A stretch of DNA of 64,000 bases from Ostreococcus lucimarinus. Its lineage: Eukaryota. Where the stretch lies: the NCBI GenBank assembly GCA_000092065.1, contig CP000584.1. One strand, written 5' to 3'. The translations under genes were made by a program, and so were the position numbers. Below the pieces are notes generated by a model that was not told the DNA's origin, did not search any database, and was given only the letters and a program-made list of their open reading frames with translations. Positions 24,029 through 57,573 of this stretch are shown piece by piece; positions within the stretch are counted from its first letter, which is position 1, and every line of letters begins with the position of its first letter.

Positions 24029-27000
24029 ATGTCGCCGCGAAACGCGGTCGCCGTCGCGCTGCTGAACGACCCGAACGAATGCGTCGTCGTCGACCTCGAC
24101 GCGCTGCCGACGGACGTCGAGGACGTCGCGAGCGTCCTCCAGGCGGAGCTCGCGCCGCTCGAGGCGTGGATCGAGGTGACGGAGGCGTACCTCAGGCGAG
24201 GCGACGCGCGAGGGTTCGAGACGCTGATGGAGATGGTGTGCGCGCCGGGTGCGTGGACGCGCGCGCCGCGACCGACGGGACGCGACGCGCGCGCGAACGA
24301 ACGAACGAACGAACGAAAGCGCGCGAACGTTTGCGCGATCGAGCGATGATGGATCGACGGGCTCAACGGCGTCGACCGAACGCGGTGACTGACGAGACCG
24401 CGCGCGCGGACGACGATAGAGATCGAGGAGGTGTATAGGGAACAAGCGTACGGACGCGCGGCGGTGCTGTGCCTGTACGCGTCGTATTGGGCGAATAGGG
24501 CGGCGCGGGAGACGGACGCGGTGAGCCGAGAGGAGGGGTTCATCAAGGCGGGCGCGTACTTGAATCAAGCGGCGGGAATTCACAGGAAACCGGAACAGAT
24601 CGTGGCGATCGGACGCGCGCACCTGGCGTTCGCGCGCGGGGCGACGGGAGAGGGCGAGAAACTCATCGACCAGGCGCTCGGGCTCAAGGACGACGGTAGG
24701 GATAACATCACGCCGATGCTGTGGAAGGCGGTTTTATTGTATAAGAAGGAGCGCTACCAAGACGCGTTGACGTGGTACAAACGCGCACTTCGCGCGTTTC
24801 CTTCCGCGCCCGCACCGGTGCGTTTGGGGATCGGGGCGTGCCAATACAAGCTGGGCGACTTCAAGACGGCGAAGCTTGCGTTTGCGCGCGTGCTCAAGTT
24901 GGATGAGCGCAACGTCGAAGCCATGCTCGGTTTGGCGCTGTGCGAATTGAGCTTGCATGACATTCGTAGTCAGCAACACTTGGATTCCGTAGCTGCGGCC
25001 ATGCGCCTGCTCGAGCGCGCTTTCATGCACGACCCTCACAACCAAGCGGTGAACAACGTCATCTCGGACAATTTGCTCATGGCGGATGATTACGAAAAAG
25101 TAGAGAAACTCACGCGACTGGCGCTTCAGAACAACGCGGAGACGCCGAGGAACCGAGCGAAGGCGGCGTTTAACCAAGCGCGCGCCTTGCACGCCCGAGG
25201 ACAGGTGCCTCAAGCGCAAGCGTTGTACTTGACGGCGACGAACCTCGACGAACACTACGTGCCGCCGTACTTTGGTTTGGGTCAAATCGCCCTTGCAAAG
25301 GGTGATGTGAAGTTAGCGTGGAACTACATGGATAAAGCACACGGGGAATTCGGAGAGTCCATGACCGTGACTAGAATGTTTGCCCATTTATGCGCGTCGA
25401 CTGGTAGAAGCGAGCAGGCGGCGGAGATGTTCCGCGAAGTAGTGAAACAGGGTGGAAACGACGTCGACGCGATGTTAGAACTCGGAGAACTCTTAGAGAC
25501 TCAAGATCCGAAGGCTGCGTTGAAGGCTTACAGTGCCGCCCTGAAAATGCTAGCTGCCAAGGGTGAAGAAGGGCCAATTACCGCCATCAAGAACAACATC
25601 GGCGTGTTGAACGTTCAGTTGGGCAAATTCGACGAGGCGCGCGAGGCGTTCACCGAGGCGCTGCAGGCGCTCGGTGGCGATGCCGATCAACTCGAGGGCA
25701 AACTGAAAGGTGCTAAGGCGAAGAAGGCGTTACAGCCAGGCGTTGCGCCCATCGCGTTCAACTTGGCTTTATTAGAGGAACAGCAAGGAAACAACGCCGC
25801 GGCGGAGGCACGATACGACGCCATCCTCGCCGCGCAACCGGATTACATTGATTCCATCTTGCGTCAAGCGAAAATTCGGGCCGAACGGGGCGATTACGAC
25901 ATGGCGCTCGAACGCACGAATGAAGCCATTGCGGCGAAAAGTGATAGTGCCGATGCCCTCGCCCTCGCTGGTTGGGTTTTGCTCAAGGCAAAGCGATGGA
26001 GTGAGGCGGAGCAACAATTCGCCGCGCTGCGCAACTTGCCCAAACCCGACGCCGCGGCGAATGCGAAGGAAAAAACATTGACGCACGACGAGTATGCGAT
26101 GGTAAGCGCGGCGAACGCGGCGTATTACAGCGCTATCAAAGAGGGTGTGCTCAAGCGAAACGATCCCAAGGTGCTCAAGCGCGAGGAGGAGCACTACGAA
26201 CGGGCTTACTCGTTGTTCCAAAAGACGCTCCAGAAGAATGGTTCCAACGTCTACGCCGCTAATGGTCTCGGGATTATTCTTGCTGAGCGAGGGCGAATCG
26301 ACGAAGCCAAGACGGTGTTTCAGATCGTGCAAGAAGGCATGGCTGCGAAAGGCTCAATCAACCCGGATATTCTCATCAACCAAGGTCACGTGTACTTGGC
26401 CAAGGCGCAATATGTGCAGGCGAGCAAGCTTTACGAGCGCGCTCAAAGCCAGTTCTACTTTAACCAGAACGAAAATGTCATGCTTTATCAAGCGAGGGCG
26501 CATTATGAGAATGGCAACTTGGAAGAAGCGCGCAAGATTCTTCGCAAAGCGTTGTTAATCGCGCCCTGGAACCACAGAATTCGATTCAACTTGGCGTACG
26601 TCATTCAAGAGATGGCGCAGCGCACGTTGAACAGAACGATGAAGAGCACGAGCTCGGACGGACGTTTGGCGCAAGTGGAAAGTGCGATAGAAGACTTGAC
26701 CACTGCGCTCAAGCTCTTCGAGCAATTGCAAACGCTTGGGAACCAGGCGGAGTTTGGTTTCGACGCCAAACGCACGAGCGTTCACGTGTCCTTCTGCAAG
26801 CAAGCGCTCACCAAGTCCAAACCGCACTTGGAAGCGGCGCAGAAGGAAGAGGCTTCGATCTCTGCAGCGAAAAACGCGCAACTCACCGCGCGCCGCGCGA
26901 TCGAAGAAGGCCGCGCCGCCCAAAAAGCTGCCGAAGAACTCGCCAAGGAGACGCACGCCAAGGAACTCGAAGCCATCGCTGCGCAGTCTGAGCGTCGCTT

Positions 27001-54981: not shown

Positions 54982-56490
54982 ATGACGACGCTCGCGGACT
55001 CGTTCCTGGCGGATCTGGACGATCTGAGCGACGACGACGCGCGCGACGGCGACGACGACGCGCGCGCGCGCGCGAACGCGAACGCGAACGATGCGACGGC
55101 GCGCGCGGGGACGACGGCGGCGGCGCGCGCGGAGGATTTGGACGACGTGGCGACGCTGACGACGACGGAGAGGTATCTCAGGGTGACGCGCGCGGTGGAC
55201 GAAGCGATGGAAAGGGATGGGATGGACGGCGCGACGACGACGGCGTCGGGAAAGCGCGCGGGGGCGATCGACGAGGGCGCGGAGGCGCTCGTGGTGGAGT
55301 GCAACGCGCTCACGGTGGAGGTGGACAACGAAGTCGCCGTCGTGCATCAGTACATTAAAGACAGGTATAAGAGTAAATTCCCAGAGTTAGAGTCCTTGGT
55401 GCTGCATCCGATCGATTACGCGCGAGTGGTGAAGGCGATCGGGAACGAGATGGACATGATGGGGGTGGAATTGGACGGCGTGTTGCCGTCGGCGACCATC
55501 ATGGTGGTGAGCGTCACGGGATCGACGACGTCTGGACAACCGCTGAGCGAGAGCGATTTGGAGAAGACTTTACGCGCGTGTGATCGAGCGTTAGAGCTCG
55601 ATGAGGCGAAAAAGAAGATGTTCAACTACGTCGCCACGCGCATGGCGGACACGGCGCCAAATTTGAGCGCAGTATTGGGAAGCGACATCGCGGCGCAGCT
55701 CATCGGCATCGCCGGCGGCTTGCACGCTCTGTCGAAAATGCCGGCTTGTAACGTCCAAGTTTTGGGGTCTAAGAAGAAGGCGACCGCGGGCATGTCGAGT
55801 GCATCGGCTGTGCGAGCGGGAGATTTGCACGCTGGCTTCATTTACGACTGCGACATTATCCAAAAGAAGACGCCGCCCGCGTGGCGAAGCAAGGCGGCTC
55901 GTCTGATTGGCGCAAAGTGTTCGCTTATGGCGCGCGTCGATGCGTACGGGGAGTCCCCGGACGGTGCCACTGGGAAGAAGTTTGCCGAAGAAATCATGAA
56001 AAAAATTGAAAAGTGGCAGGAGCCGCCTCCCGCGCGAACGGCGAAACCTTTACCCGCGCCTGGAGTCGAGCAAAAGAAACGCCGAGGCGGTCGCCGCGCG
56101 AGAGCGCTCAAGGAAAGATACGGTCTCACGGACATGCGCAAGGCGGCGAATCGCGTGAATTTCAACGAAGTCGAAGAAGAGGTGGGATACGATGGCGAAG
56201 GTCTCGGCACGCTGGGTTCCGCCGCGGGCTCCGCCGCCGTCGCCGGCAGAATGCGACTCGCCGCGAAGGCGGCCAAGCTCATCAAGACGGATAACAAGGG
56301 CGGAAAATCCACGTTTGCTAGCACGGCTGGGACGTCCGGGATGGCATCTAGCCTGGCTTTCACGCCGGTCCAAGGAATTGAACTCGTAAATCCGAACAGA
56401 ACGGCATCGGATGGTCCAGTCTCTGGCACCGACAGCGTCTTCTCCGAGCGCCGCGGCTTTTCAAACGTCGCGCGACAGCTCAAGCGATAA
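54982..56490 (+). CDS. PRPF31: U4/U6 snRNP protein PRP31 (Nop domain)
   Basis: AVVHQYIKDRYKSKFPELESLVLHPIDYARVVKAIGN ... LSAVLGSDIAAQLIGIAGGLHALSKMPACNVQVLGSKKK ... is collinear with Prp31 NOSIC/Nop. The first ATG in ORF 54805..56490 is at 54982. Confidence 0.85.
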   Translation: MTTLADSFLADLDDLSDDDARDGDDDARARANANANDATARAGTTAAARAEDLDDVATLTTTERYLRVTRAVDEAMERDGMDGATTTASGKRAGAIDEGAEALVVECNALTVEVDNEVAVVHQYIKDRYKSKFPELESLVLHPIDYARVVKAIGNEMDMMGVELDGVLPSATIMVVSVTGSTTSGQPLSESDLEKTLRACDRALELDEAKKKMFNYVATRMADTAPNLSAVLGSDIAAQLIGIAGGLHALSKMPACNVQVLGSKKKATAGMSSASAVRAGDLHAGFIYDCDIIQKKTPPAWRSKAARLIGAKCSLMARVDAYGESPDGATGKKFAEEIMKKIEKWQEPPPARTAKPLPAPGVEQKKRRGGRRARALKERYGLTDMRKAANRVNFNEVEEEVGYDGEGLGTLGSAAGSAAVAGRMRLAAKAAKLIKTDNKGGKSTFASTAGTSGMASSLAFTPVQGIELVNPNRTASDGPVSGTDSVFSERRGFSNVARQLKR

Positions 56491-56562
56491 CGAACGCACA
56501 GAGGATTACGCCTAGAGAATTGATGAATACAAAAATACAAATTCTAGTCGTCGGATGCGCCT

Positions 56563-56622
56563 GATATGATATCGGCGTCGTCGCAGAGCTCGCGCTCCCG
56601 GCGCGACGACGCGTCACGGCTC
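56563..56622 (-). promoter_or_regulatory. Candidate SECIS element in the SelM 3' UTR (form 2, CC in place of AA)
   Basis: The minus-strand RNA is gccGUGAcgcgucgucgc-gCCgggagcgcgagcucu-gcgacgacgcc-GAuauc. It has a GUGA...GA quartet and a 10-11 bp helix. Unpaired CC lies about 11 nt 3' of the core, followed by an apical mini stem-loop. It sits 40-100 nt downstream of the TAA. Confidence 0.45.
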
Positions 56623-56662
56623 GGCGCGTTCCGCGCGACTCGTTTCCATCCCCGCGTCGCGG

Positions 56663-57084
56663 TTAAAGCTCCACGCGCGCGGTTTCCCTCTCCTGCCCCG
56701 GTCTATAAAAGCCTCGCTCGTTCAAATACGTCTCCACGCGCTCCACCGTCCACTCGCTCGTCAGTTTCGCCGTCTCCACGTTGTTCCCGCGTTCGTCTTG
56801 CATGTGCAGCGACGGCGGGTGTCCCGGCGTCCACGTCACGCCCACGCGTTCGCCGTACCCCCCGACCTCGACGACTTCCTTCAGGAACGTCTTGATCTCC
56901 GGGAGGCGGTTCAATTTTCATCCCGGGCACGATTGGAATTGCGCCCGCGCGAACGCGCCTTCGCCCGCGGTCCCGCGCGCGACGCGCGCGAGCGCGACGC
57001 ACGCGGCGACGACGCGCGCGGCGACGACGCGACGCGCGGGACGACGACGCGTCGTCGTTCGCGTCGTCGTCGCCGTCGACGTCA
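56663..57084 (-). CDS. SELENOM: Selenoprotein M (SelM) with in-frame UGA selenocysteine codon at 56918-56920 (minus strand)
   Basis: ORFs 56918..57343 and 56663..56914 are in one frame, separated only by TGA: ...RVVAARVVAACVALARVARGTAGEGAFARAQFQSCPG-U-KLNRLPEIKTFLKEVVEVGGYGERVGVTWTPGHPPSLHMQDERGNN...ERGFYRPGQE. This matches animal SelM around the redox motif (CGGUQLNRLKEVKAFV). ATG 57084 gives a signal-peptide-like N-terminus. Confidence 0.8.
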
Positions 57085-57201
57085 TCGCCGAACGCGCGAC
57101 GCGCGATGTCGCATCGTCGCGACGTCGACGTCCCGCAGACGCTCGAGCGCGCGTTATCCGCATCGGCGTCGCGGCATCGCGCGACGCGGACGCGAGGTGC
57201 G

Positions 57202-57232
57202 ATGATGCGCGCGACGACGACGACGACGACAG

Positions 57233-57265
<33 letters not shown>

Positions 57266-57573
57266 CGAAGACGCGCGCGACCACGCGCGCGACGCGACGC
57301 GCGCACGTCGCGCGCGCGAACGCATCGCCCGACGGGGACGCAACCAAAGCCGCGTGCGCGGGGTCGTGCGACTCGTGCGGGCTGGCGAAGGAGAAGATGC
57401 AGTGCGATGGGAGCGGGCGAATCCAGGGCGGGATGGGGGCGATCCCGCTGTTCGCGTGGTGGCCGATCAAGGCGTACAGACCGTGCCCGGGATTGATCGA
57501 TAACGGGGGGGTGTACACGCGAAAAGGCCAAGACGTGAACGCGATTTTGTGGGGGGAATCGGGGAAGGATTAA
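57202..57573 (+). CDS. Small Cys-rich protein with DnaJ-type zinc-finger-like motif and poly-Thr/Arg presequence (predicted organellar)
   Basis: ...ACAGSCDSCGLAKEKMQCDGSGRIQGGMGAIPLFAWWPIKAYRPCPGLIDNGGVY (CxxC...CDGSG, resembling CxxCxGxG). The upstream MMRATTTTTTATTTTTTTTTRAKTRATTR is encoded by an (ACG)n repeat. The start may instead be ATG 57106. Confidence 0.4.

Follow-up and report, generated by a model that had tools for sequence, protein, structure and literature searches.

A predicted CC-type SECIS element in the selenoprotein M 3′ UTR of Ostreococcus lucimarinus, with AA-type orthologues

The selenoprotein M (SelM) gene of Ostreococcus lucimarinus is followed, on its own strand, by what is very probably the functional SECIS element of its mRNA, a form-2 structure with CC at the apical site where AA is usual. 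The element lies in a 64,000-nucleotide stretch of contig CP000584.1 (assembly GCA_000092065.1), which we call the window. An initial annotation had proposed a SECIS serving this gene, 40-100 nt downstream of the SelM stop. Motifs, fold, and conservation with covariation among orthologues bear that proposal out, and the element begins 45 nt past the TAA and about 300 nt past the Sec-UGA, in the predicted 3′ UTR. Coordinates of the gene and of the parts of the element are collected in Table 1.

Table 1. Features of the SelM gene and of its predicted SECIS element in the window
Feature	Position	Strand	Remarks
Selenoprotein M CDS	56663-57085	(-)	140 codons + TAA at 56665-56663; Pfam Sep15_SelM match
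In-frame UGA, read as Sec codon	56918-56920	(-)	motif S-C-P-G-U-K-L-N-R-L, CxxU redox motif
Whole SECIS, form 2, helix I to helix I	56557-56627	(-)	from sequence and fold with core held open
Helix I 5′ arm gcgcc	56623-56627	(-)	pairs with 56557-56561
Helix I 3′ arm ggcgc	56557-56561	(-)	pairs with 56623-56627
Core 5′ half G-UGA-C	56613-56617	(-)	GUGA 56617-56614; invariant in 11 distinct elements
Core 3′ half C-GA-U	56571-56574	(-)	GA 56573-56572; invariant in orthologues
C.C tier	56613/56574	(-)	fourth, non-Watson-Crick tier of the core
Helix II 5′ arm gcgucgucgcg	56602-56612	(-)	covariation across orthologues
Helix II 3′ arm ugcgacgacgc	56575-56585	(-)	covariation across orthologues
5′ bulge CCGG	56598-56601	(-)	site of apical AAR motif; aligned with orthologue A-runs
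Mini-stem gagc/gcuc	56597-56594 / 56589-56586	(-)	loop GCGA at 56593-56590

The SelM gene and its in-frame UGA

A single TGA breaks the SelM frame that runs from the ATG at 57085 to the TAA on the minus strand; a second in-frame ATG, at 57163 (-), is also a candidate start. With this TGA translated as Cys, the 140-aa product matched Pfam PF08806 (Sep15_SelM) with E = 6.8e-17. Its top relative among solved structures was mouse SelM, 2a2p (E = 2.2e-7), and Sep15 gave an E value of 0.26. In the alignment, the window UGA falls opposite the Sec of mouse SelM, a residue that the 2a2p construct carries as Cys (CGGC-QLNRL). Because the TGA falls on the C-G-G-(U/C)-Q-L-N-R-L motif of the mouse protein, we read it as a selenocysteine codon. 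The SelM N-terminus has a hydrophobic stretch, as judged by eye.

The protein encoded after the UGA falls in the same 90%-identity cluster as XP_001417455.1 of O. lucimarinus CCE9901. That RefSeq entry is an 84-aa "predicted protein" whose N-terminus is artificial: it starts MRHRASR and then continues with the post-UGA sequence (window 56663-56914 (-)). To judge from its sequence, O. lucimarinus SelM is mis-annotated in RefSeq, with the Sec codon and the N-terminal half absent. Metagenome gene callers called the same SelM as an 83-aa, TTG-started fragment only.

The neighbouring gene is convergent. It encodes Prp31 (Nop and Prp31_C domains) and has its stop at 56490, so that 172 nt separate the stops of the two genes. 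The order MFS sugar transporter, SelM, convergent Prp31 was common to the O. lucimarinus-type contigs (L001-L010) and the O. tauri-type contigs (L036-L039). The G+C content of the window is 58.6%, and long (GTC/GAC)n and CGCG repeats lie 5′ of the SelM start (window 57190-57300, both strands; L015:442-701). Numerous spurious ORFs, overlapping one another on the two strands, stem from these upstream repeats, as does a false Rfam match to mir-598 (E = 4e-4) at an orthologous locus.

The C-terminal tail of the window protein (RVEL; 56666-56677 (-)) was compared with those of L011, L015, L020, L024, L032, L033, L035 and L036. All end in x-E-L and resemble ER-retrieval signals: RVEL, RAEL, RTEL, KDEL, KSEL, TKEL and TEEL occur across the lineages.

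Layout and conservation of the 3′ UTR element

The RNAfold prediction has both helices (I and II), the mini-stem, and a bulge of 4 nt that includes the CC. The GUGA and GA that the initial annotation had assigned to a quartet are both in place, and the core, GUGA-C opposite C-GA-U, appears to fit the RUGA-N / N-GA quartet. The "perfect 10-bp helix" of the same annotation (cgcgucgucg/cgacgacgcg) is absent as drawn, since the sequence of the 3′ arm is cgacgacgcC. The claimed helix would start with c opposite c, so the true helix II sits one base over and has 11 bp, of which 10 are Watson-Crick pairs and one is a closing G.U. Helix I has 5 bp (7 with a bulge), and the sides of the internal loop measure 5 nt (gagcc) and 10 nt. 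The mini-stem is as had been described. The element is indeed present within the span first proposed for it, 56563-56622; its true extent, once helix I is counted, is a little wider.

As also proposed, the bases that follow helix II are an unpaired CC instead of AA. C56601 and C56600 were unpaired both in the minimum free energy fold and in the core-constrained fold, and the CCGG bulge aligns column by column with AAA or AAAA in orthologues. No AA occurs anywhere between the GUGA and the GA of the window element, which thus lacks the canonical AAR. From GUGA to CC there are 12 nt and from CC to GA 26 nt. The SECISearch pattern published in PMC2375036 is NTGA-(10-13)-AA/CC-(15-39)-GA, and both spacings lie within its ranges.

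Protein searches, one metagenome scan and subsequent contig look-ups yielded orthologues at 39 loci. The UTR of L012 is the same as that of the window; for the remaining 38 loci we followed the SelM frame across the UGA. Together with the window these 38 loci reduce to 11 distinct SECIS sequences, 10 besides that of the window. Environmental lineages had 46-98% protein identity to the window, and L036-L039 belong to the cluster of O. tauri OUS49334.1. The in-frame TGA was kept in the context SCPG*[KR]LN in 38/38 loci, and a GUGA...GA hairpin was found 45-70 nt after the stop, again in all 38. A convergent Prp31 gene was present in most.

When the 11 distinct elements were aligned with MAFFT, neither GUGA nor GA varied. 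Across the 11 pairs of helix II, 87.6% of the cells were paired as standard pairs. Compensatory changes were seen in four of these pairs (9 cells: C-G>U-A, G-C>A-U, U-A>C-G/G-C and U-A>G.U). The covariation score was 0.398, a value reached by 0/500 shuffles (0.256 in shuffles), and sliding the register by 1-3 columns reduced pairing to 27-64%. A model-based alignment gave an identical covariation result. When the single-base bulges of three lineages were placed by hand, 115/121 cells paired (95%). Left unaided, RNAalifold recovered the lower 8 bp of helix II and left the core open. When the core was kept open during folding, a helix I of differing sequence appeared at the same place in nearly every lineage, L011, L020, L024, L032, L035 and L036 among them, and the mini-stem base GAG...CUC(U)G was conserved in most orthologues. 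Conservation of the helix in orthologous UTRs, one of two checks that the initial annotation had named, was therefore clear from pairing, covariation and RNAalifold alike. The element is a conserved structured RNA that bears every SECIS hallmark.

It could be argued that this is a generic GC-rich hairpin, acting as a terminator or in mRNA stability for both SelM and Prp31, that looks like a SECIS by chance. Its location between two convergent genes would suit such a role, CG and CGT repeats are abundant in the region, and the fold energy is unremarkable: at -37.9 kcal/mol (z = -0.89 against dinucleotide shuffles) the element folds no better than shuffled sequence. In such a GC-rich repeat context this z value leaves thermodynamics alone without weight. 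We also scanned both strands of the window with a descriptor (UGA-N, 11 paired positions, N-GA). The bare quartet-plus-helix is easily found by chance, with 3.1 matches per shuffled window at ≥10/11 paired positions; the number fell to 0.1 when a G before the UGA and AA or CC after the helix were also required. At 11/11 there was one match in both strands of the window, and it was the SelM SECIS.

What weighs against a generic hairpin is the combination of an invariant GUGA/GA with a helix that stays paired as its bases change. G.U wobbles made up 24 of the 115 paired cells; read from the opposite strand each would become a C.A mismatch, which assigns the structure to the SelM sense strand. 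The hairpin also follows SelM in L035, whose called downstream gene has no recorded Prp31-type Pfam match, and six lineages have an A-rich bulge at the canonical distance, which is a SECIS signature. We consider a chance resemblance extremely improbable, and the SECIS reading is kept in what follows.

Other matches to the descriptor were rejected. One at 31972-31926 (-) has GUGA, 10/11 pairs, an ACAA bulge and GAG..CUC, but since it sits within a coiled-coil ORF of 858 aa and lacks a UGA context, we regard it as chance; those at 24903(+) and 18814(-) had no apical motif. No alternative SECIS candidate was found on the SelM strand within 1.36 kb downstream.

The other check that had been named was a SECIS covariance model. 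The Rfam 15 SECIS models gave no SECIS match in a 501-nt region at E ≤ 10, and the whole window had no match to any Rfam family at gathering score. Weak Rfam matches to Scr6925 and sR2 in the 501-nt region were noise. An Rfam control on eight orthologous loci, six with textbook AAA bulges and one from O. tauri, also returned no SECIS match; a mir-598 match in this control, on (CGT)n repeats, was spurious. Since AA-type orthologues are missed too, the Rfam negative at the window is powerless for this genus, and the check is uninformative. The authors of SECISearch3 left Ostreococcus out of their consensus for its lineage-specific SECIS features (PMC3753652). Liang et al. attribute missed SECIS predictions in Mamiellophyceae to the same reason (PMC6627142). 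General SECIS covariance models thus miss the Ostreococcus SelM elements that were searched. A family covariance model was built from eight AA-type orthologue sequences, none of them from the window's clade. This AA-type-only model matched the window at 56571-56618(-) with 41.9 bits (E = 4e-8), and the next best match in 128 kb scored 12.8 bits.

The apical bulge across lineages

The bulge reads CCGG in the window (O. lucimarinus) and identically in 17 independent metagenome contigs. It is CCAG in L015, a co-occurring allele with 2 amino-acid differences, and CGAG in L011, which has 87% protein identity to the window. Elsewhere it is a run of A: AAAA in the L020 group and in O. tauri (L036-L039), AAAAAA in the L024 group, AAAAA in L033/34, and AAA in L032 and in the AT-rich L035. 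The A-run was missing only in the window allele, L015 and L011. In a neighbor-joining tree of the protein, these three formed one small clade nested among AA-type lineages; AA is therefore ancestral, and the C-forms arose once and recently.

CC-type SECIS elements are said to have been described for SelM by Korotkov et al. in 2002. The initial annotation had seen in the algal CC a striking conservation with mammalian SelM. The A-runs of O. tauri and five other lineages speak otherwise, as does the restriction of CC to placental mammals among vertebrates. Mariotti et al. 2012 found CC in SelM of placental mammals only, with AA in all other vertebrates, and took the CC forms to be a specifically mammalian innovation (PMC3316567). 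With AA sister groups on both sides, the algal and mammalian CC are both derived and independent, a case of convergence instead of conservation. The idea that CC is an ancestral SelM feature common to alga and mammals draws on the presence of apical CC in both. It has next to no chance of being right: AA is found in O. tauri and in the five Mamiellales-like lineages that bracket the CC clade, as well as in all non-placental vertebrates (PMC3316567), so that it is already contradicted. An independent, recent origin of the algal C-forms is the reading that we retain.

The two closest relatives of the window allele differ from it in further ways. In L015 (1097-1166) a 6-nt tandem duplication (CGATAT) on the 3′ side of the SECIS internal loop lengthens that side from 10 to 16 nt; this contig comes from the same GenBank metagenome assembly as the window-type contig L016. 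In L011 (375-421) a U>C change produces an uncompensated C.A in helix II, and the apical loop is 1 nt shorter. L011 is a single 1,032-bp JGI contig in which sequencing error is possible. Its CGAG and C.A may reflect either a loosely constrained apical motif or errors in that single contig.

Proposed function and relation to known SECIS elements

In the mechanism that we propose, the minus-strand 3′ UTR would fold into a form-2 SECIS in which the GUGA and GA form tandem sheared G.A/A.G pairs and thereby a kink-turn. SBP2 would bind the kink-turn and bring eEFSec with Sec-tRNA(Sec), and the UGA at 56920-56918, about 300 nt upstream, would then be decoded as selenocysteine. This would complete the CPGU motif of an ER-type thioredoxin-fold protein. 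Within the O. lucimarinus clade the apical AAR has been replaced by CCR (CCGG, and CCAG in the co-occurring allele). That a CC-type element binds SBP2, recruits eEFSec and inserts Sec in this alga is inferred from established SECIS biology. Human SelM and SelO CC-type SECIS elements bind SBP2 with a Kd of 3-7 nM (PMC3328465), and binding this tight suggests that CC is, in principle, compatible with the machinery. Mamiellophyceae are reported to encode a full Sec machinery (PMC6627142), and SelM of both O. lucimarinus and O. tauri has been published as a selenoprotein (PMC2375036).

A different possibility is that the SECIS is degenerating, with loss of the AAR marking a SelM whose Sec insertion is inefficient and which is heading to loss or to Cys conversion. 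The apical motif does vary within the clade (CCGG, CCAG, CGAG), L011 has its C.A in helix II and its 1-nt loop deletion in addition, and general SECIS models fail to recognise the window element. However, those models likewise fail on AA-type orthologues, and CC-type elements work in mammals, the human SelM and SelO SECIS being tight binders of SBP2 (PMC3328465). The gene has retained its UGA, its frame and the codons downstream; in the element, neither GUGA/GA nor helix II is disrupted, and many environmental contigs carry an identical copy. After the UGA, dN/dS was 0.18 against L015 and 0.39 against L011, with small counts in both. Such purifying selection means that the post-UGA codons are translated in lineages without AA, and it speaks for continued Sec insertion by way of the CC element; we judge decay very unlikely.

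Beyond a working SECIS, it is possible that the O. lucimarinus clade (CCG, CCA, CGA) has re-specified or relaxed the apical "AA" requirement and still decodes Sec, independently of the AA-to-CC switch in placental SelM. We think this rather unlikely. If true, it would imply a SelM-specific selective reason for CC, such as tuning of Sec-insertion efficiency or a gene-specific SECIS partner, and it would provide a natural allelic series for probing the role of the apical motif. That role is still described as unclear (PMC3316567).

In architecture the window element resembles eukaryotic form 2 / type II SECIS elements (Rfam SECIS_1), with which it shares helix I, the internal loop, the RUGA/GA quartet, a 5′ bulge, a mini-stem with a small loop, a helix II of 11-12 tiers and a site in the predicted 3′ UTR of a gene with a Sec-UGA. 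It departs from the usual form-2 element in having CC for AAR and G instead of A before the UGA, in being very GC-rich, and in going undetected by Rfam models. As in the CC-type elements of placental-mammal SelM and mammalian SelO, an unpaired CC occupies the apical site of a form-2 element (PMC3316567), and in the case of SelM the protein family is the same. The window CC has an origin independent of the mammalian ones, and the two kinds of element resemble each other in sequence only in their core motifs.

The O. tauri SelM SECIS (L036-L039) has the same GUGA-C core, 11-tier helix II, GAGC...GCUCUG mini-stem base and convergent Prp31, but it differs from the window in that its bulge is AAAA and its apical part is longer. 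Helix II differs between the two at five tiers, among them a compensated U-A in tier 2, a U.G wobble in tier 5, a G.G mismatch in tier 6 and a U.U mismatch in tier 11. The Ostreococcus consensus of Lobanov et al. 2007 (PMC2375036) is likewise type II with a G directly before the quartet. It typically has a long mini-stem, and the 4-5 bp of the window mini-stem count against a full match to this consensus (PMC2375036).

The SelM gene and the existence of its SECIS were already known, and the element itself was presumably seen in 2007, as SECIS searches then allowed CC. The main text of Lobanov et al. 2007 (PMC2375036) has no mention of a CC-type element, and a keyword search of the main texts of relevant papers turned up no algal CC-type SECIS. 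What seems new is a clear non-mammalian CC case in which the ancestral AA is documented in sister lineages. The set of CCGG, CCAG and CGAG beside AAAA orthologues of near-identical architecture also seems new, as a ready series for tests of the apical motif. A parallel AA>CC change in SelM of two very distant lineages would be of modest interest.

Between the SECIS and the Prp31 stop lies a U-rich block, uagaauuuguauuuuuguauucaucaau (56518-56546 (-)), with two UGUA motifs. The block is nearly identical in L011, and the other inspected orthologues have UGUA-bearing counterparts in the same place. One possible role is as a poly(A) or termination signal common to both convergent genes.
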